Source: an uncultured bacterium (GTDB lineage: Bacteria > Omnitrophota > Omnitrophia > Omnitrophales > Abzuiibacteriaceae). Taken from it: 64,000 nucleotides of DNA. The notes below the pieces were generated by a model. It worked only from the letters and a program-made list of their open reading frames with translations. It made no database searches and had not been told where the DNA came from. A program made the translations under genes and the position numbers. The DNA lies in contig CAYLXA010000009.1 in the NCBI GenBank assembly GCA_964387845.1, forward strand, positions 42,098 through 106,097, given 5' to 3'. Positions 8,645-49,364 of the stretch are shown here, one piece after another; position 1 is the stretch's first letter, and each line of letters starts with the position of its first letter.

Positions 8645-8651
8645 GTTTTTA

Positions 8652-8679
8652 GTGATAAGTGATAAGTGGTAAGTGGTAA
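8652..8679. repeat. Four tandem heptamers in the 75-nt B-A spacer: GTGATAA x2 then GTGGTAA x2.
   Basis: Read directly: agtgataagtgataagtggtaagtggtaag. On the coding (minus) strand this is CTTACCA CTTACCA CTTATCA CTTATCA, ending about 10 nt before the A start codon. Confidence 0.7.
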
Positions 8680-8702
8680 GCAACTTAAAACTTACCACTT
8701 AC
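8669..8702. promoter_or_regulatory. Perfect 12-bp inverted repeat with a 10-nt loop between the stop of B and the start of A.
   Basis: gtaagtggtaag (8669..8680), loop caacttaaaa, cttaccacttac (8691..8702). The left arm overlaps the heptamer repeats. No U-tract follows on the transcribed strand, so it is not a canonical intrinsic terminator. Candidate RNA processing or regulatory stem, or a protein-binding site. Confidence 0.5.
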
Positions 8703-8719
8703 AACTTACGACTGAAAAA

Positions 8720-11700
8720 TTATGCGGCGCGTCCCAATTCGATAACGTTACGCAGTTCCGATCTTAAAGATTCCGCAATTTGAGTAATACCAAACGCATT
8801 AAACAGCGCCTTGACTTCGCTCCGGCCGACAAACACAACCTGGCTTGCATAACGCTTCAGCATTTCGGCTGACGTTGCGTCACTTTCTTTTGAAGCAATA
8901 ATCCTGAAATTCTTGGCACCCAATTTCCGAAGTTCTGAGCGCGCCTGGACAAAATCGCGCACAATCACAAAACGGTCTGAGTTTACATCCGCAACCGCGG
9001 CCCGGATGGCAGTTTCGCTGGCCGGATCAAGCGCAATGAGCGCCGTCGGATCGGCCGAATTTTCTAAAATAATCGGAAGTGCCCATAAGACATCCTCGTT
9101 AATCAAAAGGCCTTCTGTCAGAATATTACCGACTGCCGTTTCTACCCCGGCGCCATCCTGCGCTTGCATAAATTGACGAATAGCCGCTTGAGGTTCTTCG
9201 CTTCTGGCACGGGTAAACTGCCTCCGGCCTGCTTCGACTTTCGACCTGATTCGTGTAGTAACGGCCGCAGGAATCATGGAAGACGTATCCAACGAGCCAA
9301 ACGCAGAGCTCGGAACCGCAGTCAATCGCAATTCGGAACGGGTTTCTAGTTTCTGGTTTTTAGTTTCTGGTTTAAACTTGAAACTAGAGACTAGAGACTC
9401 GAAACTTTCCTTACGAAGTTCGGAACGCTCCCACTTACCCGTCTTTTCAAGCGTGTGCTGCGCAATTGCGTGTTTAGTTTTAATCAAAGACCCCAGATCA
9501 AGTTCAAATTCCGAGGATGTTAAAGTATATGTACCCGAAAATCTGGATTCCAATTGCTGGATGCGTTCCACACCTTCCAGAACCAAAACTTTTGTCATGT
9601 TCAACTCATGATCAGACTCAAGCCCGAGATCGATACGATGTTGGGTCCTGTTCACAACCGAAACGAGCGCAAAAAGTTCCGAGACCATTTTCCCGAATGC
9701 CATAAAATAGCTTTGAACTTCTTTCTTATCTTTGATGGCTTTTGCCCCGCCAAACCGTTCTATAAGTTCTTCGCCGGCTTTTTCAACCAAAGCTGATACG
9801 TTCCAAACAATTTCCCAATCACGCTGAAGCGGGCTTTGGTCTGGAATATCCCAGCCTTGCAGCAATTGACGGTCATTCTTCCACACTTCGGATTCCAAAT
9901 ATTTGAGTACTGCCGATGCAATAACTTGCGAATAAAGGATTTCGTTGGCGCCTTCAAAAATCGTCATGACACGGGCATCCGCGTTAGTACGGGCGACTTG
10001 TTCTTCAACCATAAACCCCGCACCGCCGCGTTTTTGAACCGCTTCACTTGTCAAACGGTTCAGAACTTCAGAGCCCCACGCCTTCGCGGCCGCAGCTTCA
10101 AGCCCTGGTTCCGAAACACCGCCGTCAAAAAGCCCGGCAAGTGAATAGCTAATAGACTCAAGCGCATAGGTGTAAGCTTCCATGTCTGCAAGCGTTTCCT
10201 GAACAGCGCCCCAATTGGCGAGCTGCGTACCGAACTGTATGCGATCGAGCGACCAATTTAAAGTTCTTTCAAATGAACGGAGCGCACCGCCCCAGCTTCC
10301 GGCTGCGACCGCCGTACGGCCGTGATTGAGAATCGACATGCCGATTTTATTGCCGTCGCCCAATTGGCCGAGCAGATTTTCCTTCGGAACCCGCGCATTC
10401 TCAAAATACACATCGACAGTCGAAGAACCATGAAGGCCTGTTTTGTGGTAGTCGTTGCTGATGGAAATGCCTGCCGCTTTGCGTGCTTCCGCATCCTTCG
10501 GGAATTCAACGATAAAAACACTCTTCTCGTTTTCACCCGTCATCGCAAATACGGTCATAACATCCATGAAACGGCCGTTTGTGATAAACGCTTTTTCGCC
10601 GGTAATTTCATAATATTCTTCACCGGTCGTTTCATCTTTTTTGAGCACCGCTTTGGTTTTTAAAACCGATTCGCGGTTTAAGCTGTCTGAACCATGCGCG
10701 GTTTCAGTCAACGCGTAAGCGCCGATCCATTCGCCGGTCGCGAGTTTCGGCAGGTATTTCCGCTTTTGCTCTTCCGTTCCGAATTTCACAATCGGAAGCG
10801 TTCCGACACCGCCATGAACACGAACGAGAGAACCCACCGACGGATTGGCATACCACGCCCACATATCTGCCAGTGTTTTCATAATCTTTTTAAAGTTACC
10901 CAACCCGTATTCTTCGGGAACTGACATCCCCAGCAAGCCCATCTCTCCTGCCTGCTGCAAAATGCCGCCCTCATCCTCAACTTTGACAGCGCCGCTATCA
11001 ATCTTTTCGCTTTCCGGAACTACCGCGCTCTTGAAGAAATTGGCGATGGCTTCATTCATTGCATTGATTTCTTCATGACCGGCTAAATCTTCCGGAAATT
11101 GGAGCGTGCCTTCGGCCACATTGGCGCGGCCATATAATAGGAAGTCGCCGGATTTGGGCGTACTTTCGGCGAACGGTACCAGTGCTTTGTCATTCTGAGG
11201 CGCAGCCGAAGAATCTACGGTCGCAGATCCTTCGCTTCGCTCAGGATGACCGGCTTTTGCCTTATCCAGCACTTCTTTTTCCATCGCGTCCATCATTTTC
11301 AGAGTATTGGCGCGAATCAAAAGAGCGTTCTTTCCATTTCTTGCTTCATAGGTAACGGGAACGATCGGCAGTTTTTCACGCGTGACTTTGATTTTGTCAG
11401 CCGCGGGAGCAATAGCGCGGATGTCAATCACATCGCCCGGACGGATGTCATGATTAAAAGTAGCCAGATCGGTCACATTCAGTAATAAATGACCGGGAAC
11501 GGCTTCCGCAGACATCCTGGCCGCTACTTTAATGGCTGCAAGAATATTGACAAGTCTCGGATCATTTGATTCGGCAATCACGCGTACACCGTTTAAATAA
11601 TCTTCCGTAACCGTTACGGGCAGAAGGCCGCTTGGATTTTCATTTGGCGATGACGTATCTTGAATGCGCGGGCTTGCAGAATCCGTAAAATCAAATATCT

Positions 11701-14700
11701 GCTTCGGAACCGAGTGCGTAACACCTTCGGACCATGCTTTCGCCTGATCGATTTGCGATTGGGTGGGTTTTGAAGTATCAAACGGCTCATCGGCCGGCCT
11801 TGGTTTCATATTGGCAACGATTTCTGCCACCACTTTCCCGGCTTGATTAACAACCTGAATCTTAAGCTTCGCGACACCATTTTCAGAAATACTCATGACT
11901 TCAATGACCGGTGTCACCACGTCGTCAAACTTCACGGGCGCTGAAAATTTCGCGCTTTCTACCGCACTACCCTCATCTCCGATGCCGATAAATTCATACC
12001 CGGGAAGCTCTTCCTGGGTACGGGCCAGCATTTTAGAAACCGTCAGAAGGCCATGTGCAACCAGAGCGCCAAATTTGGACGCTTCCGCGTATTCTTTGAG
12101 TAAGTGGAAACGGTTGCGGTCGCCTTCCATCGCGAAGAGCTTGACCATCCACTCGCGCATGATGAGCGCGTTTCCGAGAATCTTTTGGCCGGCGAATACG
12201 GAAAGTGCGTTGTCTTCCGTGCGCCCGCCCGGACGAAGCGCTAAGAGAAGTCTTGCGCGCGCCTTTGTATAACGTTCTTTTTCGGCATCGCTCAAAATAC
12301 CAGGGATTTTCATGGCGCGTTCCATTTGGATAAACGGAATGCGCGCGGATGCAGCATCTACGATTTCAAGCGCGCCGGTCACAGGATCTTTGAATCCGAC
12401 AGCGCCAAGGCCGCGGTCTTGATCGGCAACGGCGTAATCTTCGATAATCGCAAGGTCGCGCTCAGTTGAATTTTTCCATGCTTTTGCGTACGCTTTGCCT
12501 GCATCACTCTTGAGCCATTCTTTCTTGGCCGCTTTGCCTTCATCCGTTTTCAAATCAAATACGGGCATCGCACCGACCGTGTCAGCGCGTTGCGGACTTA
12601 ACAAGCGGTTAATTTCATCAACTTGATTGGCTTTTGCAAGTTTTCCCGCGAAACCCCAATTGGCGACACGTTCCGCTTCATGCGTTACATTTTCATCACT
12701 GGAATAACCATCGATCGCGTCAATTTTTGAATATGCCGTGAGAGCAATAAAAAGTGAGTGATAATAATTGTAACCTTTCGTTGTCGGATCATCTTCGGCC
12801 TCATGAACCATATTGCCGTCAACATCGAAAATCGCGGCCGTTACGCGGCGGCTTGCACGCATGATCGACTGCGTTTCCGATTCCTCAAACGCTTTTGCTT
12901 CTTGTTCGATTGCTTTAGGGTCAGAAATGCTGGGTACAATTTCAAACCCTCCCGTGAGATATCTATAATCATGTTCAAACTCGGATAGAAAACCGTCTAG
13001 CTCTCTGATTTCTTTTGCGCTTTGTGTGTTTTGATACACAATACCCGTAACAGAGGATGCGAGTAATGGGAAAATATCCTTAAGTCTTTCGATTGGATTT
13101 GACTTTGCAGTTTCAATCCAAATAATCTTTTCATGCTCGCCCGGGAGCATCAATCCTTTAAGTTTTTGTATAGAATCCTTGAAAGAACCGTCTTGCCACC
13201 ACGAAGCCGGTGCGGAATCTAAATTGATTTTAATGATATCCACCTCTGAATTCATTGCTATATTCAGAGCTTCATAGTCATTTACGTCAACACTTACGAT
13301 TGATCGTGCCAATGACACATCGCGCGGAACGAAAACTTCGGGCGGAAGAATAGGTTTGCTGTCGGCTGCCATTTTGTCGAGATCGGCCAGTTTTATTTCG
13401 GGTAATTTTTTGTAATCGTAATCCGGATGTTTGCGGATGACAGGCGGAAATTGGCCGAGGAATGGCTCCATTCCCTTCAAGTGGTTCGGATGAACGCTCC
13501 ACTTGCGGTTCATGCCGATCTTGATAAATTTTTCTGTGTCGGCTGTGGTCGGCTCAACTTCAAGTTTCACGGTAATGCCGGTACCCGCCACTTTTCCGGT
13601 TTTCTTTCCGGCTTCAACGATATCGAGAAGCGCTGAGCGCATATACGGAAATTGCTCATGCTGCACTTCATTTTTCCCGCCGGTTGCGGCTGTGTAATCG
13701 ACAACGCCAAGCTGTGCTTCTTCTACTTCCGGAGCAATTGATAAAATCCGTTCAGCGTTCAAAGTTCCACCGGGAAGTTCTGTGAGCACAAATACTTTAT
13801 GAGAACCGACGGGGCGATTGACCCATTTTTGTTCGGCTTGAATCGCACGCAGATTGGCAACACCGATGCGGACATCCTGCGGGCCGAATACTTTCGGCAT
13901 ATAAATACCGTCTATCAAATGGCCGATGGCGCGAAAGACGATGGAATAATCGCCCGCGGACCACTTGGTGCGCAGATTGTTCGGACGGAACAGAATCATC
14001 TGGTCTTTATGGAAACGCGCTTCTTCTTTTAATTGGAAGCGTCTATTGCGCGAATGAATCTCATCCCACTCGTCTTCTGACAACATCCGGTAATCCGAAT
14101 AATCGGTGTCATCCGGCAATTCAATAAGATATTTGTCGATCGGATCTTTTTCGTCGTTGGCCTGCAAAGCATTCTTTTTCAAGAAATCAACTTGCTCTTG
14201 TGTGAGGATTTCGCCCTTGAACAACCGGATCAATTGAATAATGACTTCGCGCGCAAGTTCCTTGCGGATGGTCGCTACGGCATCTTCCAAATCTAATAGA
14301 AGAATCGGAGCCTTCATGCCCGCGCGTGCGGCAAGCAGCATGAATTTCCAGTTATCACCGGGAAACACATTTTGGACTTCGCGCGGCATGTACTCCCACG
14401 CAAGCCGTGCGGCAACTTCATCAGCCGTCACATCGGGCTTCACGACTTTCCAATTTTCGTAGCGGTAATTGAGGTCTTTCACGGCATGAGCTTCATCATT
14501 GCCAAACGCGGTCAGCAATGCCTGCTTCACTTCCGCATTCGTCACTTGATCGAGCGAAATTTCCCGTAATTCGGAACGGACAAACTCGGGGCTCTTCAAT
14601 CTGTTGCGGTCAATTTTTTGAAGGTCGCCGGTGCGCGGAAGTGAGGAAACAATCACAACCCGCTTGGGTGCTTTGTAATGGGCAAGTGACTCTTTTGCGG

Positions 14701-17700
14701 ATTCAATAATCTCTTCTTCCCTGCCTTTTAATGCTCCGAACCAGGCTTCGGTGACAAAAGCAACCACCACTTCATCAAAATGGCCGACCAATTCGGCAAA
14801 GTCATCATCGGAAATAACGCCGGCCTCGCCGTGAACAACCTGATCAAAATAAGCAGGATCGTTGATTCCGACGACTGCAACTTCATTGACACCCTGAAAA
14901 TTAGAAATTACCTTTTCCACTTCGCCCGGATTTACATTTTGGCTGCCGGTGATAATGACGTTTTTCGTACGGCCGGTGATGGTCACGTAACCTTCGGAAT
15001 CTATTGTCGCCAAATCACCCGTACGGACCCACGTCAGGCCGATTTTTTGAGTTAAAGCCTCTTTAGTCGCTTTCGGATCATTCCAATATTCCCTCATCAC
15101 TTGCGGAGCCGAAACAATAAGCTCGCCTTCCTGACTGCCTGCAATGATGTCCCAAGTTCCCGGCTTCACAACACGCGCCACAACATCACGGTTTGGCTTT
15201 CCAACCGTTCCGGGTTTTTCGGCGTTAATCGGGTTCGTGATGGTGCTGGTGGCTTCGGTTAATCCGTAACCTTCGATCAAGCGCGCGCCGGTTGCTTCTT
15301 CAAACGCACCTTTTACTTTTCCGAGAGCGGAACCGCGGCTTAGACCGATCAAGCCCGGAAATTTCCGGCCTGATTGCGCCAGCGAATGGAAAATTGCGGG
15401 AACCGCAAACAACAACTTCGCGTTTGATTCGGCCAGCGTTTGCGCCAAGCCGTCTACAAATGATGCGGAAGTTTGATTATAAGGAAGGCGGGGCGCGAGA
15501 ATAATCGGCCGGCCTTGAAGCATGCTCGCAAACACCACATGCGTTCCGTAAGTTTTCGGCTGTAAAGGAATCACGGCCGGTCCCGGCTCAACATCCTTCA
15601 GCCAATCCTGATATTGTCCGAGCGTCGCTGCAATATTCGCATGCGTCTGTGCCACAATTTTCGGAGTCCCCGAAGTTCCGGTCGATGGTGAAAGCTGCGC
15701 AATATTTTTTTCATAAACCGGCCTTCTGGAAGGAGCGCCGTTCGTGGGCGTATTAAAAATGTCATCGAGCACTTTCGCGGTTCCGTGGCGTAGTCTATGT
15801 TCGCCCAAATCAGAAACATAAATCCTTAAATTCGGGAATTCCTGAACAATATTTCTCAAATCATCTTTGCGGTAATAGTCAGTCAAAATCACCAACGCTT
15901 TTGCGCCGGTTTCTTTGAGATGGCGGACGATATCACTGCGGTTCCACAAAGTTTCAAACGGAACACGGACGGCGCCTGCCCGCCAAATCCCGAGGTCGAC
16001 GGCAAGATCATAGGCCGAATTCGGCATCATGACGGCCACGCGGTCGCCTTTTTCAATTCCCGACCGAATGAGCTCTGCGCTGAACCGGCCGGCCCATTGG
16101 CCGAGCTGTTCGTATGTTATAGATTGATTTTCCATCGGAACCACGGCAGAAGCGCTTCTGGCCAGCCGGATGGTTTGCTTCGGATATTTTTCTATCGCAT
16201 CGTCAATCATTCGCACAATGTGGTAATTGCGTGCTTCAATTTCCGATGTCACCTGCGCTCGCATTGATATAGTTGCGTGATCAGGTACCATTGGCGATGG
16301 ATTTAAATCGAGGTCTTCCATATTAACCGGCTGCGGCGCATCCGAGACCCACTCTAAGAGCGAGCGCGGAATTGTGACGGAGTAGCGATCCGCAACTTCT
16401 TGAACCAGCGACAGGACACCTGCGGCGCCGATCTCGGTCATTTGCTTAAAAATGCCTTTTTCCCATTTGAACGCGAGCCGGACGGCAACGTCGATGCCCT
16501 CTTTGGCTTCTTCGGGGCTTTCAACATCCAGAATGGCATTTTCATCGATCAACTGCCATGCCACCAAAAATACGCCGCCCAAAATAAAATCACGGACCGC
16601 GCCCACAACATTATTCGGAAGCGTTTCGCCCGCGGAAAACTCAACTCTTCGGGCTTCATTAAATTGAGATTCAAAATCAAGCAAAGACGGAGAGGGCGCA
16701 TAAAATTGATCCGGATACGCGCTGTGCAGAATTCTTTGAGAGTTTGCCACAATGTCAGGCGCAATGTACTTCGCGACAAGCTCTGCCGCTCCTTGTGCGG
16801 CGCCGAGCGCCATTTTGAATGCTTCGTCAATGGTCGCGAAATTCACGTTTTCCATATTAACGCCGATGCCGCCCAAAATGGTTGCCGGAGCGCCTTCATC
16901 CGCGATCCGAAGCGCGTGATTGAGCACGGGAATAATCAAACGGCTTGTCACAAACCCCGGCTGGCTTTTTACGACAATGGCGGTTTTTCCGACCGTACGC
17001 ACGAACATTTTTGCGCGCTCGACGGTTTCCGGCGAAGTTTCTCTTCCAACCACAATTTCGACCAATTCATTCACGTGCGCAGGAAGCTGAAAATGAATGC
17101 CGATCACATATTGTTTCCGCTCGGCACTGACCGCTTCGGCAAGCTCTTCAATCGGAATCGTCGTGGTGTTGGTGGCTAAAATCGCACCTTCTTTCGCCAG
17201 CTTATCCAATTGCCTAAAGAGCGCCTGTTTCACGGCTTTGTCTTCAACCGCAGCTTCTATAATGATACCTTTTGAAGCCACTGCTTCCGGCAAGCTGGTG
17301 CCATAATCCAACAAGTTATCGAGCTGGCCGAGCTGGGCTTCCGATAATTTTCCATTTTCATGGGCTTTTCTAAAGCTATCTTGCAAGGTTTTCTGTGCCT
17401 TTTGAATCATTTCCGGTGAAATATCATAAAGCGACGTCCATAATTCGCCGTTCTGTGCGGCGACTTGCGCAATCCGCGATCCCATCTTCCCCGCGCCCAA
17501 TACTGCCACATAATTATCTTCATGACGCGAGCGCAACTCGGAGCGCGGCATTTGGACGAGCTCGGTGAGGACTTTCTTGCCGCCCTGAATGGAAACAAGC
17601 GTGAAGAAAACGGTCGTGCCGTTTGCTCCGGGGCGCGGCGCTTGGTCGACTAATATGATTCCGGAAGTTTTGCTTTTGGCGGCTTCAACGATGTCTGCCG

Positions 17701-25876: not shown

Positions 25877-26049
25877 AGTTTTTCTTTTCCGTTATCTGAC
25901 TTTTTTAAAGTTTTGACTTAAAGAGCCAAAGCTCCCCCGAGTAATAAGACTGGGATTTATTGTCGGGTGGATTTATTTGTAGAACCGCAACTGAAAGTCA
26001 TGGGTATTACGGAAGTTCTTCCTTTCAATCAGATTTTTACGACAAGCAC

Positions 26050-26078
26050 AAGGTAACATACAGCTTAAACCAAGTCAA
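26050..26078 (-). promoter_or_regulatory. Candidate promoter for B in the 271-nt C-B spacer.
   Basis: On the minus strand: TTGACT (plus strand 26073..26078), 17 nt, then TGt-TACCTT (extended -10-like, plus strand 26050..26058). Weak -10. Confidence 0.2.
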
Positions 26079-26147
26079 ATTTTTTTTAAGATATTAGGTA
26101 GTTTTTTACATCTATAAGGGCTTATTTACCGAATATATAGTATAAAA

Positions 26148-29100: not shown

Positions 29101-32100
29101 AACGGCTGATCTTTGTCTAAAAGCATGGCGAGCCTTTTTCGGGCCGGCAAATAATGATGCTTGTGGCAAAGCGGGCAAACGCCGTGGTTGGCGTGAAGCG
29201 CTTCCTCGTAAATCGAATCAGGATCATCAAAGGCATCTCTGCTTTTTGGAAACTTTGGATCATGTTTGGATTTCAAAATAGCGGATTCGAGTTTTGCTAA
29301 ATAATTGGTATCAAATTCACCGTTGATAAAACTCGGCATGACAGCCAGCTGCTTATATAGAAGGAGGGTTGTTTTGATGGGCGTTCCGTTTAACTGACCC
29401 TTGATCTCAAATTGATCCAGCGCTTCCTTTAACCGCTCAATAGCTTCGGTTCGGGTTTTTGCCCGGATGGTGAGCGTGGCAAGGCTCGAACTTCTGCTGA
29501 TATGAATCTTATCTCCCTCCTTGATATGAAGTTGGATGTCCACGCCATTCCCGGCAGGAGGCAAGGCTATCTTTTCAATAACCGCTTCCGGATATTTTGA
29601 AAAATCATGGGCGAAATCCTCGGCAAAAACCGACAGTTTGATCGTGTGATCCTGTGATTTGATATCCGGCTGCAATTTTATATCCGGAAGAGATTGTCCG
29701 CCCGCAATTGCGATCTGAAGCTGAATCAAATCAACGGGTTTTCCATCCTGATTGACAAATTCTCGGTTATCGATATTTCGGTTGATATCCAGAAAATAAA
29801 TTTCGCCGGATTGGGTCATCAGAAATTCCATTGTGCCAACGGTCTGATACATCAAGCCGTCTTTGCGCAAACCGGCCAGGATTGTCCGGACAGCGGACCT
29901 GATTTCCTCATCTTTATCCTGCGACATCAAGGCAGGCGGGGTTTCCTCGATTAATTTTTGATAACGGCGCTGAATAGTACCGTCCTGAAACGGCCAAATC
30001 GAGACATTGCCGAACTGGTCGGCTGCAAACTGAACTTCAATGTGCCGCACCTCCGGAACCAGCTTTTCTATGAAAAGGCCGTCATGCCTGAAATGATAAA
30101 CAGCGTTGCGTGCCAATTCGTTAAATATGCGCCGCATTTCATCTTGGTTTTGTACAAGGCCCAAAAGCCGGTCAACACCGCCAACCGCGGATTTCACCAA
30201 AACCGGATACCCCAGCTCGCCTGCCGCCCGGATTGCCTCCAAAGGCCCATCGACGGTAAATTCCGAGGACGGCGGCACTTTGATTCCATATCGCTGAATA
30301 CGCTCTTTAATGGTTTCCGGATTCTTGCCTTCGGACTTAAGAGGATGAATCCGTACCGCGCTGACGGTTTGATGATCGGGGCCGATAACTCTGATATTTG
30401 CTTCTTTTGCGGCACTGATCAATTCCGGTGTTTCCGACAAAACACCAAATCCCGGATGAATGACATCCGCCTTGGCCTGCTTGGCGGCATCTAAAATTCC
30501 GCGGATATTGAATGCCTTGTTCTGGATCCTGGTAATTTGTATTTTTTCATCCGCCAGGCTTAAAACTTTCTTCTGTGCGTCCAAATCGGTATACAAAATA
30601 ACGGTTTTAATGCCCATGGCTTTTGCTGCTTTAATCACGCGTTCTGCTAAGCGATCCACGAATGCGATGACCATTGTCCGAATTTCTAAAGATTTAACGC
30701 TTTTTGCGGCTCTTAACTCGCTCCGGGATCCTGTTTTTCCGGGTTTTGCTTTCAAAAACAGCCAATCCATTAAGAAATGATCTTTTTCATGTCCCTTGAG
30801 CACGCCTTTAAAAGCGCGTGTAATGATTTCTTTTCGGATTGTTTGAATTTCAGCTTCTGATCCGATCACTTCCGGCAAAATCGCCTCCGCCAAGGGAGCT
30901 GCTGTGAAAAACTGGATAAGATCTTGGCGGGTTGTTTGAACGGGGTCAAATTTTAGGGTTTCGACCGAAAGTCCGGCTGATTCTAAAGCCTTCGTATAAA
31001 ATTCAAGCGGGCGGTGAGCGGGAAAAACCTTTTGAAATTGGCCCGCATGGCCGTTCGTGGTCAAGTTCCGGTGATTGCTGTATTGGCCATCTGAACTCAG
31101 AATCTCAAGCGCCCTCGCGCGGACCTGGATCAATAGGTTTTCAAAACCTTCTACGCCAATTTCGCGGTCATTTCTTAAAATGCCGGGTGTTGATAACACA
31201 AGTTTACCATCCGGATGAAGTGTTTTGGCAATTCCCTCAAAGACATGCGCAATCTGGTTGACAGCAACCGTATGAATCAGATTAGGCGCATACACGAGAT
31301 CTATCAAACCTCTGGAAGCAGGGCCGAGTGCCTCGAAAATATTTTGATGCCCATTTCCCTCGGTTAATTTCTCAAGGAGATAGACGCGTAAATTGGGATA
31401 TAAGTCCTTCGGAAGAAGTTTGATTAGGTGACGCAAAAATGATTTTGATATATCCGCTGCAATCACTTGCGCATTGATACCGGCAAGTTTCAATAGACGC
31501 GCGGTCCCATTCCCGGTTCCTGCGCCGAGATGAACAATTTTTTGAATCCCGGGCATGCCCTCTTGGCGTTTAAGGCCCGCGATCCTTTCTGTTTTATCCA
31601 GCGACAATTGATACATGTCGGTTTCGGTCGATCGGAAAAATTCCCTCGCTGCTTGTGATGGTTCCTTTCCATCTCCTTGCCACGGCGGATTGAATAAATT
31701 GCGCAGTTCAGATTTAACGCTCTGAATCAAGCCCTGCCGGCCGTCTTTTGAATCAGCTAGTATTTGAATATATTCCAGTGCTTGATGCAGTTCTCCGGTG
31801 TGATGACTAGGATCGAAAATCTGATCAACGCCCAAATATTTTAGATAAGGGCCTTCATCTTCAGTGATGCCGCCTACAATTACTTTGATCCGATCTTTGG
31901 CGCCGTATTGATCCAATTCATTCATTAAATCGCGTACAAAATGAAGCCGCGCACCCGAAAGGCTTGAAATTCCAATGATGTCGGCGTTTTCATCAACTGC
32001 GGCACGTGCAATCATGGCAGGTGTTTGACGAAGCCCCGCATAAATGACTTCGAGCCCGGCATTTTTAAACGCGGCGGAAACCAAATTGATGCCGCGGTCA

Positions 32101-35100
32101 TGGCCGTCTAAGCCCGGTTTTGCCATTAAAATGCGGACGGGCACTTTGCTTTCGATTTTCCGGATCGGCGCTTGCCGGCTCGTTTTAGACGGAAATACGC
32201 TCTTTTTAAAATCACCAAATACGCCGCGCACGGCATCCATCATTTCACCGACGGTTGCTTCCGCGAGCGCGGCTTTAATAAAGTAAGGCATCACATTTTC
32301 ATTCTCTTCAGCTGCTTTTGTAATCTCGGCCAAGGCTTTCCGTACTTTTTCATTGTCGCGTGTTTGTTTCAGTTTTTCTAAATTACCCAAAACTTCGGCG
32401 CGGCGTTCCTCGTAAGATCCCATCCGCTCACGCAGCATTTCTTCGGTAATGTCAACTTTTTCCGCTTTTTCTTCCCTTACCCCTTGCCCCTTGCCCTTTA
32501 ATCCTTGTTTGGTGAGTCTTTCTTCCCGCAGCATTCCTTTTTTGGTCACTTCATCCTGAATGGCGTCGCGCATGTACTGCTCGACCGCTTCCTGGCCTTC
32601 GGTTTCATTTAATTGAATCAAAAATTGAATCAGCGCCGCGGCTTGATTGATAATTTCATCCGTGTATTTTTCAAGCAAATAACTGCCGCCGTTCGGATCC
32701 ACTTGCTTGTCTGCGATTTGCTTTAAAATTTCATGGCTTCTCAGCGCGACTTTTGCGGCATGTTCGGATGGCAGGCGCCTGTTCTCATCGTAACTATCCA
32801 AATGAAGCGTTTGCGTGCCGCCGTCAACCGCAACCAGGCCTTCCGCCAAAATGCGGGCGATATTGGCCGGCTCATCCACCCCTTCCGGATCTCCTTTTAA
32901 AGGAACGCCTGAAGTCTGTGTGTGTACCCGGAACATCAGCGCTTTATTTTTATTTTCATCGCGTGCTTTCAAAATATGGCGGGCAATAATAGCCCACAGT
33001 TCGCGCGCAGCGCGGAACTTGGCGGTTTCGTAGGTTTTGGTTTCGCCGGTTTCGTCCATCAAAAGCGAATCAAAGAAAAATGAAAATTGCTCGAGCACCT
33101 GATTCACGGTCACTTGGCTTCCCGGGCGCTGATTTTTGAAGAAATTCTGCGCATACAAAATCGCGTTCATCAGCGTAAACGCAACTTCCTGAACGGCCGA
33201 TGAGCCGGCTTCGCGCATGTGATAACCGCTGATTGAAATCGTGTTGAACCTCGAACCTGCGAAATACTCGAACATATCGTTTGCGAGACGCATGGAGCCC
33301 TTCGCTGAAATACCGTAATTGTTGCGCGTGGTTCTTTCTTTGTTGTTGTCGTTTTGGACAGTGCCGCGGAGTGTTTTCTTGGCGAGTTCGATTGCTTCGG
33401 CTTCTGACAAACTGCTGTCTTTCTGCATGAGCCGTTTCGTGCCGAGTGCGATATACATCGCCAAAATCGGCCCTGCGGATGCGTTGATCGTCATCGAAGT
33501 GGAAACTTCGCCGTCTGTGATGTCGATTCCGTCAAAAATGGTTTCCATGTCGCGGATCGAATCGACCGGTGCGCCCTCGGTTCCGATGTTGTAAATCGCG
33601 CGCGGGTCATCGGAATCAATGCCGACTTGCGTCGCGTTCTGAAACGCCAGACTGAATGCTTTGAATCCTCTTTCTAAAAACAGGCGGAATCTTTCGTTGG
33701 TTTCACGTGCCGTGCTGTAACCCGCATACTGCCGCGGCGTGACAGATTTGTAAGTCGCAAATGCGCCCCGGCGGAACGGATATTGGCCCGGCACCTGAAC
33801 GGCCGGTACATCGCCGAAATCAAAAATGCGCGGCACCGGCTGCGCTTCGTTGGGGTCTAAAAGCCCGATGCTGTAGATCGATTCGCCGCGCTCACGGAGG
33901 AACTTGGACATTTCATGATCGGGATCCTCGGGTTCAATGAATTCAATAACACCTAGGTTTTCCGGCAGTTCCAAGACCGCTATTTTTAGTTTTGCATCTT
34001 TATCTTCATATATAGGAAGGCCGAATGACGCCGCGCTGGAAACAGGAATCATGATGCTGACGCGTTCTTTGGCAATACTTTTTAACCTGTCGTCCTGAAG
34101 CCAGCTCTCCCTGGCTTTCTGAATCATGGGCTCCGCAATTTTTGAAATTTCTCCGGCAATCACCTTTTGATGGTGTGTCTCCCGGAGGATTTGCACCAAA
34201 TACGGAACCGATTGCTGAACGGTGATAAGCTCTTTCTCGGCAAGTTTTCTTTTAGTGGTCGGTTTTGTTTTTTGATTCAAATGAGCCAAATGCGCCGATA
34301 TCCGGAGTAAAAGTTCTGAAAATCCTTTTTGTTTTTCGCCGGTTGAAACGGTTTGAACCGCAAGCGGCTGCCATCCGTCTTCACGCGCAGGCTGTGTTGA
34401 AAGACCGGCTTCGAGGTCGTGAATGGCGACAAACGCGCGTTCCGTGTCCGCCTGGTTTAATACCGCAATATCGGGCGTTTCCATGGAACCTGCTTTCATG
34501 GTCTGAATTTCACCCAGATAAGCGGGACTTAAAGTCAAAAGAAGCGTGTCGGAAACTTTCCTGATTTCATCCTGAGTTTGGCCGGCGCCTTCGGTTTCGA
34601 TCAAAACAACATCCACGCCCATGTGGTCCATTAATTTGGCAACTTCATCCGTCGTTTTGGCAATGCCGCCTTGGCCGTCGCGCAAACTGACGCTTCGGAT
34701 CATGACGCCCGTGTCATCCGCCAAATTACCCATGCGGTACCGGTCTACGAGAAATGCCCCGCCCGAAGAGTCTGATGACGGGTCTACGCTGACGATTCCA
34801 ACCCGAAGACCCGTTCGCCTGATTTCGCCGGCAAGGTTTGCGATAAATGAACTTTTACCGACTCCGGGCGGCCCCGTGATTCCGATCCGGTAAGAATTGC
34901 GCGGCAGTTTTTGAATTTCAGAAACAACAACCGGCCGGATTTCTTCACCGGTACTTTCCATAAAAGTCATGAGCCGCGCAGCGGCGCGATGATCGCCTTG
35001 CTTGACCAAATTTAACAACTGACGGGTTTCCCACCAGATCAGCGGCATTGTGATACCGGATTTTCCGGAAGCGGCAATAACCCTTCTTTTAGCCGAAAAC

Positions 35101-38100
35101 TTTTCGAGATAATCCGCTAAATTTTTCTCATCCAAAATCCTGCCGGCAGGTTTATTTTCAAAAACCTGATAAATTACATCACCGTCAGATTGGCCGCCAT
35201 AAACAACAACTGCGCGGTCTTTCAAACTCGAAACTTCATGCGCAAGGAGGCCCTTCAGCTGCATGTCTTCTTCTGATTGGGGATCCAAATACACGATATC
35301 CGCATCTTCATCAATCGCGGCGCGCGCGATATGACGCGCTGCTTCCGGATTTTCCGATGTTTCCCGGACATAAATCACTTCGAAACCCTTTGAGCGGAAA
35401 AACTCCGCGGCAGCTAATGAACGATTTTTATCTCCAAGTTCCACGACCAGCGCGCGCCCTTTCGCCAATTTAAATTCCGAAGCAGGGCCCGCTGCCGGCT
35501 TGGAATGTACTTTTAAAAATTCTCCGTGCCGGCTGACGGCATCAATGAGTTCCGAAATTCCTTTGCCTTCGCCCTCAATCGCGACCGTTTCAATCACAGG
35601 CGGCATCCATTCGTCTTTCGCTTGAGGTTTTTGGAAAACGCGCTTTGCAATTTCCGCCGTTTCGCGGGCACCTTTTCGGTCGGCTTTATTGACAACCAGC
35701 ACATCCGCAACGGTCAAGTAGCTGTCCTTGCTGAGCGTTAAAATATCGCCTGACTCGGGCGGAATCGCAGCCACCATGGTATCCGTAATTTTCCGGATTT
35801 CTTTTTGGGATTGGCCGACACCTTCGGTTTCGATGAAAACAAAATCCTTTGGAGTTCCGGAATCAACTCCGTAAATATCAAACACTTTTGCGACTTGTTC
35901 GGTTGTTTTTGCAATGCCGCCAACGCCGCCGCGCGTCGCCATGCTCCTGTAAAATACATTTTCATCCGTCAGCAGTTCGCGGGAAAGCCGCATTCTGTCC
36001 GCCAAAATTGCGCCGCCCGTAACGGGGCTTGTGGGATCAATCGCGATCGCCGCAATGCGTTTTCCCTGCCGCCTGTATTGTACGATCATGTCTTCGACCA
36101 GCGTGCTTTTGCCCACACCGACCGCGCCTGTGACGCCGATTCGGCGCGGTTTTTGCTCGATATGAATGGCGTCCAATTTTTGATGAATCAATTCCGCAAC
36201 TTCACCGCCGTTTTCAATGAATGAAATCAACTCACCGGCTGCATGGTCATCGCCCGCGCGGACTTTTGAAATGAGCGTATCCACTTCGGCGTTTCGAAGT
36301 TCGGAACGCGAAGTCAAGGTTTGTGCCGCCAACCGGGCAAGCTTTTGGCTGTCCTCGCGGCGGCCACGTGACCCGACCCAAACCGCGATTCCGACCGGAA
36401 TCATAACAAAAAACATTGAAGTTCCAAGCGCATAAAACAGGCCGATTACTTTTTTCTGGAACAAAAAGTCTTCGTATGCATCCCCTAAGATTAGCTGCTG
36501 AAGATTTTCACCGTTTGCAAATAGAAATTCGGGCCTTTCGCTCAACACGGTATCGCGAAGGCGCATGACGTCCATGCTCGCATCATTGCGGACGATTAAA
36601 TAAGCGAAGTCGCGCCCGTCTGTTCCTGCTTGGATATCAATGCGGATAATTTTGTCGTTGATGTCCGGTAAAGATTTAATGCTCGAAAAGGAAAGGGCTT
36701 CTTTTATCCTGTCCTGCAAATACGCATTGTTGCCGAATTTTCCGCCCAATTGATCGTTGATCACAATCGGCAAGTCGGTACCTTTCGCTTCTTTAAGCGC
36801 ACGCTCGGCGGCGCGGACCGGATCCATATACCAAAAATAGGCCGCACTTGAGATCGGAAGCACAACAACCATCGCGATGAGGAACGACAGCAGTTTGTGC
36901 TTCGAAATCCAGCGCGGATATTGGCGGTACCAAACTCTCTGCTTTTTATCGATTCTATGAACCTTGCGCAGATAATCGAGAACCTTCGCCTCAAATAAAG
37001 AATATTTCTTCGGTAAATTTAGGTCAGTTGGCTGAGTTTGATCAGTCACCTTGCTTGTAACGTAACCGCTTGGTTTCAGAAAACCTTTTTCCCTAAGGTG
37101 GTTATAAATTTTCTCGGATTCCGTTTCGTTAAGCCAGGTTAAAGTGGGGCCATCGGACAAATAGGTAATTGCCGATCGGCTGGCGGCATCATCGTTATCC
37201 GGCGTTAGGTTGGCAAAATCACCGGCATGAACTCTTGCCCGCAGCTCTGAGCGCGAAGAATCTGCTTCTTTGTTCCTCGGTTTTGGTTTTAAAGAACTGA
37301 CGATACTTAGAGTTTCCAGTTCCTTCATGACATTGACGGTAAAAATAACGGAAACAGCGACTGTGATCATGGCGCCCGCAGTTAAAAGAGTAGGCACAGC
37401 AATCCACCAAGGCAATATTTGACCATCTAAAAGCGGATTCTTGGACTTGTCTCCCGTTCTCAACTCCGACCTGGCTTCCCTTTGAAGGAAAGTCGTTAAG
37501 CTCATCATAGCGGGCAGGCCCGATTCAGGCTTCGGAAATGGTTTAGCATCCCTCGTACGCACACCGGAAAGAGCCGCAATTAAGCGATACTCGGTATAAG
37601 GCATGATGGTTTGTGAAATCCAATGGGTGCCCCAATAAGCGGAGGCCGGCACTTGAGCGGCTTTGTTAACTGCCGTCACCGGATCATCTGAAGACAAGAA
37701 AACATCAGGGTCGGCGGTATGAAGTTCAAGCAAAATTAAGCCGTGATTAATATATTTTTCCCAGCGCTGGAAAAATTTGATAAGGTCGGCCGCCGCTACA
37801 ACCGCGGGCACTAATTTTCCTTTATCAGAATAGGAAGTCCTGAATCGTGTAGCGATTAACTCGCTCAAGTCATCAAGATTTTCAGGCAAGGGCTGTATGT
37901 TAAGAATGCTCTGAAGAAGCGCTCTGTCTGTTTTCAAGACAGCTTCTTTAAGAATCTCTCTTGCTTCGTCTATACTTTTAATTTTCAGCTTTCTTTCGTG
38001 AGGCAAAACCATCTGCATATGCAGAAGATCCCGGGCGCCGACCGGGCGGTTCATCCGCAATTCGCGGTCATAAATAACCATACGCCTGTCCGCCATGCTC

Positions 38101-39689
38101 TTCTTAATTGCTTCGTCATACTCTTCCGGGTTTGTAACATCGCCGAACAACACATCCGTGACGATACCTTCGGTATTTTCAAATGCTTTTAACGTGTTTG
38201 CTTCTCTTAGGCGGGATTTTTCGTTGTAGTCAGCAGCAATTACAACCAACGGATGTTCCTTGAGATGTTTGCCGCGCAAAGTGTTCTGAATAATGTGATC
38301 GACTGTTAATTTTAAAAGATGCCCGTCGCCTGCGCCCATATCCGCAATTCCGGCAGGCTGGGCTTCAATAGGCGCGTTAAAAATCCGGTCAACCCGCGCA
38401 ATAATATCTTGGATATAAGCTTTATGCGCAAAGCTGCTGCCCCAGATATCCATCACGCGGTCAATGTGGCCGTCCCGGTCAATACCAAGCGGATCCGGAT
38501 TTCCAAAAAGCATTTGGTCTAAAACTTTGTAGGATTTTAAATAGGATGTCGTAACGCCATAGCTGCCCACTTTCTTCATAAACGACAGCCCTTTGGGTGT
38601 GAGGCGGACTAGATGACGCTGATGCGGCTGCCGCTCGGCCAGACTATGTATTGCCAACAGGTCGAATGCTGCGTCTATAAAACCGCGCTGAAAGCTTTCG
38701 GAAATGAGCCCAATATCAAAACTATTGTTTTGAGCTTCTAATTGATTAAAGATTGATTCTCCGACTTGGACAATTTCGCCGTCAACATCGCGATAAACAG
38801 GCATACCGAGCGCCACCATCGTTGCGCTCATGATGATACCGTCGATTTGAGTCCGTACTTCCTCAATTACCCTGCCCACTACCCTTGAATCATGGTGCCT
38901 GAATATAGGACTGGATGAGCTTGGCAAACTCCATCCACGCGCACTTTGTTCAACCAATGCCTTATACTGCTTAAGTTCCACGTAGCGCCCGTCTTGGCTT
39001 GGTTGATGAAAATATTCATGAAGCCTTACAACGTCCGCGATTCCTTTAACCGGTGTTTCTAAATAGCCGGCATTTGCAAGCAATGCCGCAATCTGCCCTT
39101 TTTCCGTTAGTGAAAAAACGGTCTGCTGGTCAATGCCCCACATCCTAACCCACCCCTGCAGGGCAAGCGTCCGCATCGCTCCGTAAATGTTGCCTGCATT
39201 AAATTTTTCTCCATACGATGCAAACCTTGACTCTAAACTGGCTAAACTTAAGGATTCAGGCTGTGTCCAAGACCCGAATTGATAGAAAACACCCGCTTTA
39301 GATAAATAATGAAGTATGGGAATTGTCATAAGGCCGTTAATGTGCTGGAAGATCAGCGACCGAACTTCGCTTTCGGATACAGGGCCGATATTGGATCTTA
39401 ATTCCGACCTGGGATTAAAAAGCGTTTTGACAAACTGGACGGTGATATCCGCGAGCGAATGCTGCTCTAAGATTTTTTCTTCCGGAAGATCAAGTTCTTT
39501 TCTGAGTTCGGAACGGAATGCGGGCACCATATCCGCCGATTCCGGACGCAGCGTAGAATTATATTTCAGCGCCGAGGTCAGGTAAGGAATGTCGGAATAA
39601 GCGATAGAACTTGTAAATGAAAACGAAACTACAAGCAGTGCAGAAATTAACTTAAGAAAATAATTTTGTTTCATCTTATCCCTTACCAC
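26148..39689 (-). CDS. Giant mosaic polyprotein C, 4513 aa, built from methylmalonyl/propionyl-CoA modules. The likely true start is the ATG at 39672..39674.
   Basis: ORF-track start is GTG at 39687..39689. The in-frame ATG 5 codons downstream (39672..39674) is preceded by AAGGGA (plus strand 39679..39684) at SD distance, and lies 2 nt after the TAA of ORF X (GGT AAG GGA TAA g ATG). This indicates translational coupling. The leader from the ATG reads [28 protein letters not shown]. Confidence 0.85.
   Translation of the reverse strand: [4513 protein letters not shown]
26151..26700 (-). other. C-terminal conserved region of C.
   Basis: ...[34 protein letters not shown]...[30 protein letters not shown]...[11 protein letters not shown]. 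The FDEGL block is also found in E. Confidence 0.4.
26775..26789 (-). other. Example RSELR site in C (codons AGA TCG GAG CTT CGC).
   Basis: Plus strand gcgaagctccgatct. Reads [15 protein letters not shown]. Confidence 0.9.
26800..27380 (-). other. Module in C: P-loop nucleoside/sugar kinase-like (uridine kinase/PRK family).
   Basis: [22 protein letters not shown] (~27300..27345), [17 protein letters not shown]. Preceded by [12 protein letters not shown] and followed by [11 protein letters not shown] (26775..26789). Confidence 0.45.
27560..28330 (-). other. Module in C: carboxyltransferase alpha (AccA-like).
   Basis: [72 protein letters not shown] (~27855..27890), [14 protein letters not shown]. 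No biotinyl-carrier (AMKM) domain was seen in C. Confidence 0.85.
28340..29230 (-). other. Module in C: acetyl/propionyl-CoA carboxyltransferase beta (AccD-like) with a partially degenerate zinc ribbon.
   Basis: [22 protein letters not shown] (~29155..29200, only one CxxC pair), [60 protein letters not shown]. Confidence 0.85.
29260..30700 (-). other. Module in C: biotin carboxylase (ATP-grasp) with BC C-terminal domain. The glycine-rich ATP loop is partly degenerate.
   Basis: [11 protein letters not shown]..., [27 protein letters not shown] (~30185..30260; canonical KASAGGGGKGM), [33 protein letters not shown]. C-terminal domain [14 protein letters not shown]...FDTNYL. Confidence 0.65.
30950..31650 (-). 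other. Module in C: SAM-dependent methyltransferase-like, copy 2.
   Basis: [21 protein letters not shown] (~31495..31540). Confidence 0.5.
31790..33830 (-). other. Module in C: B12-dependent acyl-CoA mutase (methylmalonyl-CoA mutase family), catalytic barrel plus canonical B12-binding domain.
   Basis: [27 protein letters not shown] (~33740..33810), [20 protein letters not shown], and the B12 domain [34 protein letters not shown] (~32090..32190, DxHxxG present). Confidence 0.85.
33850..34060 (-). other. Module in C: glyoxalase/VOC-fold segment, methylmalonyl-CoA epimerase-like.
   Basis: [64 protein letters not shown]. Confidence 0.35.
34000..35050 (-). other. Module in C: MeaB/ArgK-family GTPase, copy 2.
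   Basis: [76 protein letters not shown] (~34860..34905). Confidence 0.8.
35250..36230 (-). other. Module in C: MeaB/ArgK-family G3E GTPase (mutase chaperone), copy 1. Followed by a Rossmann B12-binding-like domain that lacks DxHxxG.
   Basis: [77 protein letters not shown] (P-loop at ~36110..36160). Preceded by [12 protein letters not shown]. Confidence 0.8.
37800..38500 (-). other. Module in C: SAM-dependent methyltransferase-like, copy 1.
   Basis: [24 protein letters not shown] (motif I, ~38300..38370). Confidence 0.5.
39590..39689 (-). other. Leader of C: conserved Sec-like leader.
   Basis: (MVRDK)[35 protein letters not shown]. First RSELR at about residue 58. Confidence 0.6.
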
Positions 39690-49076: not shown

Positions 49077-49251
49077 TATTTGTTGGACATCCCTTTCAAA
49101 ACTGAGATTCTCTTGCCAGACTTTTCCAAAGTTTTAAGCTTCAGAGCCAGAAAAATACAATGGCTGCTTTTGATAATGGATTGATCTTTTCTGCGCCTGA
49201 CTGTGAGTTGGATCATTTTTTCTGCCGAATTTCCTGCCGAAAATTAAGAAA

Positions 49252-49280
49252 ATATTATCATTAGAATACCTTTATTTCAA
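49252..49280 (-). promoter_or_regulatory. Candidate sigma70-like promoter for D in the E-D spacer.
   Basis: On the minus strand: TTGAAA (plus strand 49275..49280), a 17-nt spacer, then TAATAT (plus strand 49252..49257). About 170 nt upstream of the D start codon. The region is AT-rich, so a chance match is possible. Confidence 0.3.
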
Positions 49281-49330
49281 GTATATAAGGTATTTTTTTT
49301 AATATGATAAGATAACTTTGATACCTTTTA

Positions 49331-49345
49331 GTTCTATTATAGAAC
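49331..49345. promoter_or_regulatory. Perfect 7-1-7 palindrome gttctat-t-atagaac, about 20 nt downstream of the E stop.
   Basis: Read directly. Adjacent small hairpin agctt-atca-aagct at 49346..49359. With only a 1-nt centre it cannot form an RNA hairpin loop, so it is a candidate dimeric-regulator operator. Confidence 0.4.
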
Positions 49346-49364
49346 AGCTTATCAAAGCTCTTAA

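Follow-up and report, generated by a model that had tools for sequence, protein, structure and literature searches.

Giant multi-enzyme open reading frames (ORFs) are a defining oddity of the phylum Omnitrophota. Cleavage of these giant proteins was proposed by West-Roberts et al. (bioRxiv 10.1101/2023.11.21.568195), who stated that the cleavage points are unknown. Nielsen and Lui (bioRxiv 10.64898/2026.06.07.730766) described "multi-enzyme metabolic clusters" among giants of at least 10,000 amino acids (10 kaa), with motifs, cleavage, processing and cysteine unmentioned. The 64-kb window analyzed here, a stretch of 64,000 nucleotides of contig CAYLXA010000009.1 from an uncultured member of the Omnitrophota, is filled by minus-strand giant ORFs, designated A, B, C, E, and F, together with the smaller gene D (524 aa). 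ORFs B and C are the main subject of this analysis; an earlier reading of the sequence (the original prediction) had taken them for a complete ethylmalonyl-CoA/methylmalonyl-CoA enzyme set written as two proteins. With a probability of roughly 60%, B and C are instead two of at least five consecutive Omnitrophota polyprotein genes, with cassettes separated by [RK]SELR, a candidate cutting site, and with D as the candidate protease.

The locus resembles the published Omnitrophota multi-enzyme giants in belonging to the same phylum (its relatives are labelled Candidatus Omnitrophota or Omnitrophica), in its very long ORFs comprising many enzyme families, in the presence of a signal peptide and/or membrane helices, and in the sugar modules PGM and UDPGP; post-translational cleavage has been hypothesized for those proteins as well. 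Unlike the published giants of at least 10 kaa, the proteins encoded here comprise 2.6–5.7 kaa. Neither preprint reports a separator motif, the absence of cysteine, a common leader or C-terminal domain, or the shuffling of cassettes, and the novelty relative to the published giants lies in an explicit separator motif within a polyprotein system. No paper in the literature library searched joins Omnitrophota with polyproteins. Searches on bacterial polyproteins returned only synthetic-biology and virus papers, and a search on RSELR only software names.

Separator motif and common architecture of the giant ORFs

The tetrapeptide SELR occurs 58 times in the 21,024 aa of A, B, C, E, and F, versus 0.62 copies expected from composition (90-fold enrichment). 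In 51 copies it is preceded by arginine and in five by lysine (56 [RK]SELR). Few variants differ from it by one mismatch (RAELR, RSELH, and others), and the residues flanking the pentapeptide carry almost no information. The codons of the motif vary freely, with all six codons of Ser, Leu and Arg in use, which indicates selection on the peptide, not on the DNA; on the same grounds an interpretation of RSELR as a DNA-level repeat was rejected. None of the 58 copies lies inside a domain envelope, with the envelopes covering 33% of residues (P ~6e-11), and the same is true of B and C alone, where 0 of 17 copies fall inside envelopes at 52% coverage (P ~3e-6). On this sequence evidence [RK]SELR is a recurrent junction motif between distinct enzyme units.

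All five giant ORFs begin with a leader resembling a signal peptide, consisting of a basic, lysine-rich n-region and the stretch LxLxFSFTxSxAYS, followed by D or E. One or two copies of the motif are found within about 100 residues after the leader. B, C, E, and F also share a C-terminal domain of about 200 aa, which begins directly after RSELR and ends with ..RAA, RSA or SRA. Of 1.84 billion representative proteins, only nine matched the profile of this domain, and three of the nine belong to this window; the RSELR clade is thus rarely sampled.

The polyprotein plan comprises a Sec-type leader, a short pro-region, a string of cassettes and the shared C-terminal domain of about 200 aa. Each cassette represents what elsewhere is one protein or one multi-subunit enzyme, for example MeaB-MeaB-VOC-mutase-B12, AccC-AccD-AccA, mutase alpha and beta, 3-hydroxyacyl-CoA dehydrogenase with synthetase, or CitE-MaoC, the latter with or without acyl-CoA dehydrogenase (ACAD). 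The most likely mechanism would be the cutting of [RK]SELR by a dedicated sequence-specific endopeptidase, releasing the cassettes.

Fusions of housekeeping enzymes of 5,000 aa are unusual, and for this reason misassembly, an unrecognised genetic code and decayed pseudogenes were considered as sources of the giant ORFs; no support for them was found. B and C, confirmed at their stated coordinates, are free of stop codons throughout (17.2 kb and 13.5 kb, respectively), and homology keeps to the reading frame along the whole of each. The catalytic motifs of the triosephosphate isomerase (TIM), ACAD, MeaB, mutase and B12 modules are intact, and the Trp content of the polyproteins is normal. The same protein (P0001, identical to C and beginning at an ATG five codons in) was recovered from a 106-kb NCBI contig and from an independent Logan assembly, and the architecture recurs in related genomes of other samples. 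An artefact is therefore extremely improbable.

Several further features of the window were recorded. The spacers between giant ORFs at 25877–26147 and 49077–49364 comprise 270–290 nt, are AT-rich and carry promoter-like hexamers (TTGACT...TATGTT upstream of B), so that each polyprotein gene may have its own transcription. No RNA families were detected in the window by Rfam. ORF E contains six hydrophobic helices besides its leader and shows very few family matches; an exact database look-up of E as translated gave no match, probably due to the choice of start codon. The junction AELPRAELRG(A/T)AS(V/A)LPSHLAKSELR is present twice in E (aa 620–652 and 893–925), and its sequence suggests a junction-plus-cassette duplication within this ORF.

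Candidate protease, cassette shuffling and cellular location

In each of the three genomes compared, namely the window, L016 and L018, gene D is found amid polyprotein genes. About 35 homologues were found; the named sources are all Omnitrophica or Omnitrophota, and none of the homologues has a Pfam domain. Residues H72, E100, E152, R437, and the motif GGFH465 (H465) are invariant in 35 homologues. H72, E100, E152, and H465 compose a 2His/2Glu signature, each residue following a predicted beta-strand (E64-70, E96-99, E147-151, E456-462). Such a site is used by the active enzymes of the TIKI superfamily, some of which are sequence-specific endopeptidases (PMC6254334). The AlphaFold model of D, built from 35 sequences, is confident (pLDDT 87), and two members of the TIKI superfamily appear among the ranked matches of D, a TraB family protein in 7th and the MARTX endopeptidase RRSP in 39th place. 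No significant match to D was obtained by Foldseek against PDB or by profile-versus-PDB comparison, and none to Pfam, and the TIKI assignment is not confirmed. Overall, D is a putative member, at moderate confidence, of the TIKI/TraB/PrgY/ChaN/erythromycin-esterase superfamily, which also holds non-proteases. D, or an in-chain equivalent, would be the best candidate for the protease acting on [RK]SELR. The proteases proposed for the published Omnitrophota giants contain C39 and S8 domains, not a TIKI fold.

Two related genomes, L016 and L018, encode D proteins 86% and 63% identical to D, respectively, and their polyproteins share the leader, RSELR and the C-terminal domain with those of the window. 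C corresponds to two genes of L016, one comprising the methyltransferase and the acetyl-CoA carboxylase (ACC) modules (2454 aa) and another (P0045, 1918 aa) whose MeaB-to-mutase cassette is 50% identical to that of C end to end. In L018 the UDPGP cassette of F (61% identity) opens an 1875-aa protein, which continues with a glutamate dehydrogenase module; in the window that module is located in E. In both genomes the cassette alignments stop at RSELR and the adjoining cassettes differ. The cassettes are 43–61% identical in these relatives, whose D is 63–86% identical. Since cassettes change polyproteins in the course of evolution, a polyprotein behaves like an operon at the protein level, and a shared ORF is no evidence of pathway coupling in this lineage.

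A sister clade (P0002, P0003, and L004, the latter an Omnitrophota groundwater metagenome-assembled genome, MAG) has a related leader and cysteine-poor giants. The homologous methyltransferase cassette in these three carries [AS]SLG at the aligned positions where RSELR stands here. Sister-clade giants begin their series of cassettes with the D-like module (..IQDAHG.., ..GGFH..), and the giant gene lies among ordinary genes. The hidden Markov model of the C-terminal domain did not detect the C-termini of the sister clade. A scan of genome contigs with the methyltransferase cassette returned one Omnitrophota MAG and unrelated polyketide synthase (PKS) loci of Burkholderia, and missed the window's own genome. 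A homology search with the whole of C found only six proteins and missed relatives of 45–50% identity that were found by other routes; negatives from this search on giant queries are therefore weak.

The D-like first module is also present in P0004 and P0007, giants of 6.2–6.5 kaa from MAGs labelled Chlamydiae bacterium, which have an AprA-like module, a normal cysteine content (0.5%) and, close to the N-terminus, another short repeat, SSLE[LP]RAS. These giants may be a further, third version of the system, and their Chlamydiae label is likely wrong. In L016, the closest relative, a 118-aa gene with matches to the bAvd and 23S_rRNA_IVP families (11613–11969) separates the D homologue from the polyprotein gene that follows; none is present at the same place in the window. 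These families are accessory proteins of the type associated with diversity-generating retroelements.

The motif could also remain uncut and serve as a short linear recognition signal for a secretion chaperone, translocon pausing, a scaffold or docking partner, or a modifying enzyme, leaving intact giant multi-enzyme chains at the membrane or cell surface. Its enrichment, inter-domain placement and lineage-specific replacement would suit any specific recognition pair. Copies located 5–9 residues from the C-terminus in B and E, as well as the very short pieces between some sites, are odd for cleavage, and the published view of the Omnitrophota giants is that of membrane-anchored intact proteins. 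Several features argue for cutting, however: motif-bounded cassettes match normal stand-alone proteins end to end, the paired sites directly after the leader resemble those of pro-peptide removal, and a hydrolase-fold partner with the 2His/2Glu signature co-occurs with the polyproteins and forms the first cassette in the sister clade. An uncut motif is thus rather unlikely.

Cleavage at RSELR by D is itself a prediction from sequence, and a number of points weigh against it. Some pieces between sites comprise only 9–35 aa, and one site of B (aa 5647) falls within the conserved C-terminal domain. This domain has no assigned fold or function, and its AF2 model, built from four sequences, is unusable (pLDDT 38). 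Several enzymes would stay fused inside one cassette, so that cutting would not fully separate the activities. A Sec leader on enzymes requiring ATP, CoA, NAD, and GTP is a physiological paradox, and simple helix counting is inconsistent: all of B would lie outside, but C mostly inside.

The question of location arises also from amino acid composition. The polyproteins contain two cysteines in 21,024 residues, both in C. These form part of VCPLCHKHH (aa ~3502–3512, ~29060–29090), the second half of the AccD zinc ribbon, of which the first CxxC pair is lost. The polyproteins of relatives have one cysteine in ~9,500 aa (plus 1,393 and 530 aa), while ordinary genes beside them contain 0.4–3% Cys; a cysteine shortage of the whole proteome was rejected on this basis. 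Enzymes with a catalytic cysteine, such as thiolase and GAPDH, are conspicuously absent among the cassettes seen. The near-absence of cysteine, together with the leader, suggests that the chains are unfolded while crossing a membrane or that they function outside the reducing cytoplasm, and translocation of the chains across the membrane would form part of the polyprotein mechanism.

A more far-reaching interpretation can be put forward tentatively, and as a whole is possible rather than probable. An Omnitrophota clade would write much of its central and acyl-CoA metabolism (TIM, PGK, enolase, PEPCK, PGM, glutamate dehydrogenase, ACC, B12 mutases, and beta-oxidation enzymes) as Sec-targeted, cysteine-free polyproteins. 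A TIKI-fold endopeptidase would cut them at a lineage-specific pentapeptide (RSELR; [AS]SLG in the sister clade), and the freed enzymes would act away from the cytoplasm of the producer, whether in an extracytoplasmic compartment, at the surface of the cell, or within a host or prey cell.

Enzymatic content of ORFs B and C

Modules of B and C were assigned with Pfam and NCBIfam (Table 1). The acyl-CoA modules that had been named for B are present: two 3-hydroxyacyl-CoA dehydrogenases (aa 226–499 and ~2790–3065), a reductase of the medium-chain dehydrogenase/reductase (MDR) family, which is weak (aa ~684–1047), a MM_CoA_mutase unit comprising two barrel copies (aa 1762–2266 and ~2329–2512) and lacking a B12 domain, an AMP-binding synthetase (aa 3243–3750), a HpcH/CitE-like module (aa 3944–4130), MaoC (aa 4571–4662), and ACAD (aa 4935–5320).

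The enzymes named for C were mostly recovered as well, comprising two MeaB GTPases with P-loops at aa 1188 and 1606, a mutase (aa 1963–2492) followed by a B12 domain with DGHDRG (aa 2519–2627), biotin carboxylase (aa 3003–3465), and the beta and alpha parts of a carboxyltransferase (aa 3558–4057). The VOC epimerase-like segment did not hold up to the same degree. It has only a marginal Glyoxalase_4 match (E=0.045) and is a shortened half-domain (aa 1830–1965, ~33800–34200) without the metal ligands (His), while the orthologous VOC of P0045 (aa 849–990) is intact (HVAIAV.., LHHAAFEV.., LVEFLQ). The original prediction had listed a BCCP biotinyl domain, crotonase and thiolase as missing, and this is correct for the window, where a scan for the BCCP motif [AEVSC]MK[MLAV] in the context of a biotinyl domain gave none and neither crotonase nor thiolase was found. 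It had not listed an AprA-like methyltransferase (aa 110–720), a second methyltransferase (aa 2720–2830), an AAA_18 kinase-like module (aa 4123–4255) and membrane-helix cassettes (aa 745–1132) in C, the VOC-like tail and the lack of a B12 domain in the mutase unit of B, the leaders on B and C, or the recurring RSELR.

Table 1. Giant ORFs of the window, gene D, and the cassettes of ORFs B and C.
Feature	Position	Strand	Description
ORF A	2..8698	-	N-terminal 2899 aa, leaves the window at its left end; 11 SELR, 0 Cys; PEPCK, triosephosphate isomerase with intact K/H/E
ORF B	8720..25876	-	5718 aa; 0 Cys, 8 RSELR
B leader and pro-region	25388..25876	-	aa 1-163; leader (MKMK..LVLTFSFTNTIAYS, then E) and pro-region to first RSELR
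B cassette 1	20816..25387	-	aa 164-1687 (1524 aa): 3-hydroxyacyl-CoA dehydrogenase, enoyl-CoA-reductase-like MDR, ~590 aa without family
B cassette 2	17531..20815	-	aa 1688-2782 (1095 aa): mutase alpha-like barrel, beta-like barrel, VOC-like tail; without B12 domain
B cassette 3	14564..17530	-	aa 2783-3771 (989 aa): 3-hydroxyacyl-CoA dehydrogenase and acyl-CoA synthetase
B cassette 4	9413..14563	-	aa 3772-5488 (1717 aa): CitE/malyl-CoA-lyase-like, ~400 aa, MaoC hot-dogs, FadE/VLCAD-type ACAD
B C-terminal region	8723..9412	-	aa 5489-5718: conserved C-terminal domain and 3 more RSELR
ORF C	26148..39689	-	4513 aa; 2 Cys, 9 [RK]SELR; public protein P0001
C AprA-like methyltransferase cassette	37458..39395	-	aa 99-744 (646 aa); bounded by [AS]SLG in relatives
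C membrane cassettes	36294..37457	-	aa 745-1132: two pieces (73 aa, 315 aa) with three hydrophobic helices and without family match
C MeaB/mutase cassette	31701..36293	-	aa 1133-2663 (1531 aa): MeaB, weak B12-like, MeaB, degenerate VOC, MCM-like mutase, B12 domain (DGHDRG)
C methyltransferase cassette	30711..31700	-	aa 2664-2993 (330 aa), class I
C carboxylase cassette	27447..30710	-	aa 2994-4081 (1088 aa): AccC-like biotin carboxylase, AccD-like and AccA-like carboxyltransferase; no BCCP
C kinase-like cassette	26775..27446	-	aa 4082-4305 (224 aa): AAA_18/nucleoside-kinase-like
C conserved C-terminal domain	26151..26774	-	aa 4306-4513, directly after RSELR
Gene D	39676..41250	-	524 aa
ORF E	41289..49076	-	2595 aa; 16 [RK]SELR, 0 Cys; glutamate dehydrogenase-like module, membrane cassettes
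ORF F	49365..63677	-	4770 aa; 14 RSELR, 0 Cys; RidA x2, UDPGP, phosphoglucomutase

The ethylmalonyl-CoA logic attributed to these families has family-level support for some modules and fails for others. Among solved structures, the propionyl-CoA synthase reductase domain (6EQO) is the best match to the MDR module of B at 61 bits; Ccr proteins come next (36–40 bits), and quinone reductases rank below them. Its best NCBIfam model is TIGR01751 (Ccr), at 84.5 bits versus a cut-off of 378.6 and over model positions 9–260 of 398. Its relationship to enoyl-CoA reductases/carboxylases is thus retained, while the identification as Ccr is well under the threshold of that model. The CitE module is closest to malyl-CoA/beta-methylmalyl-CoA lyases (5UGR, 4L7Z, and 6KIN; E 1e-6 to 1e-10), in line with the proposed Mcl, and MaoC is closest to a PhaJ-type (R)-hydratase (5CPG). 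The mutases of B and C both keep the equivalents of Tyr89, Arg207, and Tyr243-His244 of methylmalonyl-CoA mutase, which bind the carboxylated acyl-CoA. This set is compatible with Mcm or Ecm, the PDB and NCBIfam results containing no Ecm reference. Among solved mutases, B comes closest to HcmA/MCM and C to human MCM. In C, TIGR00641 and TIGR00750 exceed their cut-offs, and the full-length Mcm equivalog NF006944 scores 421 versus 876; all other modules of B and C score far below the cut-offs of their equivalogs.

Two assignments fail. The ACAD of B is of the VLCAD/ACAD9/FadE type: VLCAD, ACAD9, and 2Z1Q-type structures score 204–237 bits, Mcd (6ES9) reaches 114 bits at rank ~52, and the best NCBIfam model is the Bacillus-type FadE. 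It is therefore of the generic FadE kind rather than the proposed Mcd, an outcome that the original prediction itself had named as refuting and that applies to this one module. The carboxylase of C, named in the original prediction as propionyl/acetyl-CoA carboxylase parts, is of the acetyl-CoA carboxylase type (AccC, AccD, and AccA): its carboxyltransferase scores 231 bits with AccD and 204 bits with AccA, and 82.5 bits with the MmdA/PccB-type TIGR01117 versus a cut-off of 999.

Pathway-coherent ordering had been offered as an argument that the fusions are functional assemblies. The order in B (reductase, mutase, 3-hydroxyacyl-CoA dehydrogenase, synthetase, lyase, hydratase, and ACAD) differs from that of the pathway, methyltransferase, kinase and membrane cassettes are interleaved, and a relative splits the cassettes, so that this argument fails. 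Uncleaved assemblies running the ethylmalonyl-CoA/methylmalonyl-CoA route (Ccr, Ecm, Mcd, Mch, Mcl, Pcc, Epi, and Mcm), fused for substrate channelling, would be consistent with an MDR of the enoyl-CoA-reductase clade, a malyl-CoA-lyase-like CitE fused to MaoC as in the conserved bifunctional family, two carboxylate-type B12 mutases with MeaB, and the carboxylase and VOC remnants. Against them stand the FadE/VLCAD-type ACAD, the AccC/AccD/AccA carboxylase with no BCCP, the PhaJ-like MaoC, the degenerate VOC of C, the B12-less mutase of B, the order of the modules with its unrelated interleaved cassettes, the distribution of cassettes over different proteins in a close relative, and the RSELR separators between units. 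Such assemblies are improbable.

The enzyme sets of the ethylmalonyl-CoA pathway and the 3-hydroxypropionate bi-cycle have in common with B and C an MDR of the enoyl-CoA reductase/carboxylase clade, B12 mutase with MeaB, VOC, malyl-CoA lyase, MaoC, and biotin carboxylase. Unlike in those sets, no Mcd-type ACAD, PCC-type transferase or BCCP is present here, the epimerase is degenerate, and crotonase, thiolase, CoA-transferases and malonyl-CoA reductase are missing. The enzymes of B and C, judged by their family placement, are better described as a thematically related acyl-CoA toolkit than as a demonstrable ethylmalonyl-CoA pathway. This toolkit comprises the activation and oxidation of fatty-acyl and short-chain acyl-CoAs, methylmalonyl-CoA-type mutases with their chaperones, a malyl-CoA-lyase-like enzyme paired with a hydratase, an MDR resembling enoyl-CoA reductases, and a carboxylase of the ACC type.

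The CitE-MaoC unit of B has stand-alone counterparts. The region aa 3773–4700 aligns over 98% of its own length with a stand-alone CitE-MaoC family of ~1010 aa, with 42–47% identity and the same domain order, and the N-terminus of this family aligns directly after the RSELR at aa 3767. The family is widespread in NC10 (Methylomirabilales), Nitrospinota, and Anaerolineae. A lyase and a hydratase acting on consecutive steps are consistent with the conserved CitE-X-MaoC fusion in other phyla. Unlike the stand-alone genes, the unit of B is embedded after RSELR, is followed by ACAD without an intact separator, and is free of cysteine, while each of 60 stand-alone proteins contains 1–6 cysteines. 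Between the end of CitE-MaoC and ACAD (aa ~4893–4910, ~11150–11200), RSELR is absent and the sequence reads ..GHPERSEGSATV...; this stretch may be a decayed separator that has left ACAD permanently fused. A metagenome scan with B cassette 4 found only an ordinary beta-oxidation operon of an unrelated organism, which has cysteine and no RSELR.

Two further observations concern individual cassettes. In cassette 1 of B, the ~590 aa at positions 1100–1690 (20807–22579) have as their sole match a marginal one to CitG, triphosphoribosyl-dephospho-CoA synthase (E=0.0016). The AprA-like methyltransferase cassette of C is 33–35% identical to modules of Burkholderia (L005–L014) and also matches the PKS loading-type proteins P0005 and P0006.

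Significance and comparison with other polyprotein systems

The motif and gene D provide concrete candidate cleavage sites and a candidate protease for the giant multi-enzyme ORFs of Omnitrophota, and the question of their cleavage becomes directly testable. A consequence for annotation is that metabolic reconstruction should be performed per cassette, not per ORF. The avoidance of cysteine and the Sec-type leader on ATP-, CoA-, and NAD-dependent enzymes raise the cell-biological puzzle of where these enzymes work.

Like the MARTX toxins, which are large secreted polyproteins, the polyproteins described here are large bacterial proteins with an array of independent enzymatic modules that are shuffled, in MARTX between strains. 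MARTX modules are released by site-specific cleavage, which is predicted here, and one of them, RRSP, is a TIKI-fold endopeptidase (PMC6254334). Unlike the polyproteins of the window, MARTX toxins have a type I C-terminal signal, a cysteine protease domain cutting after Leu, glycine-rich repeats, and toxin modules. No homology to the MARTX repeats or cysteine protease domain was seen here, and the modules are enzymes of central metabolism.

Viral polyproteins, such as those of picorna-, flavi- and coronaviruses, likewise comprise many proteins in one ORF, with a strict short motif at the junctions. Their protease is encoded with or within the chain, and motif and protease co-vary by lineage; the counterpart here would be the candidate D. 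Unlike the viral systems, the locus belongs to a cellular organism and encodes metabolic enzymes in cysteine-free chains with a Sec-type leader, for which cleavage is predicted. If true, the extracytoplasmic polyprotein interpretation would represent a cellular counterpart of viral polyprotein expression for whole metabolic pathways.

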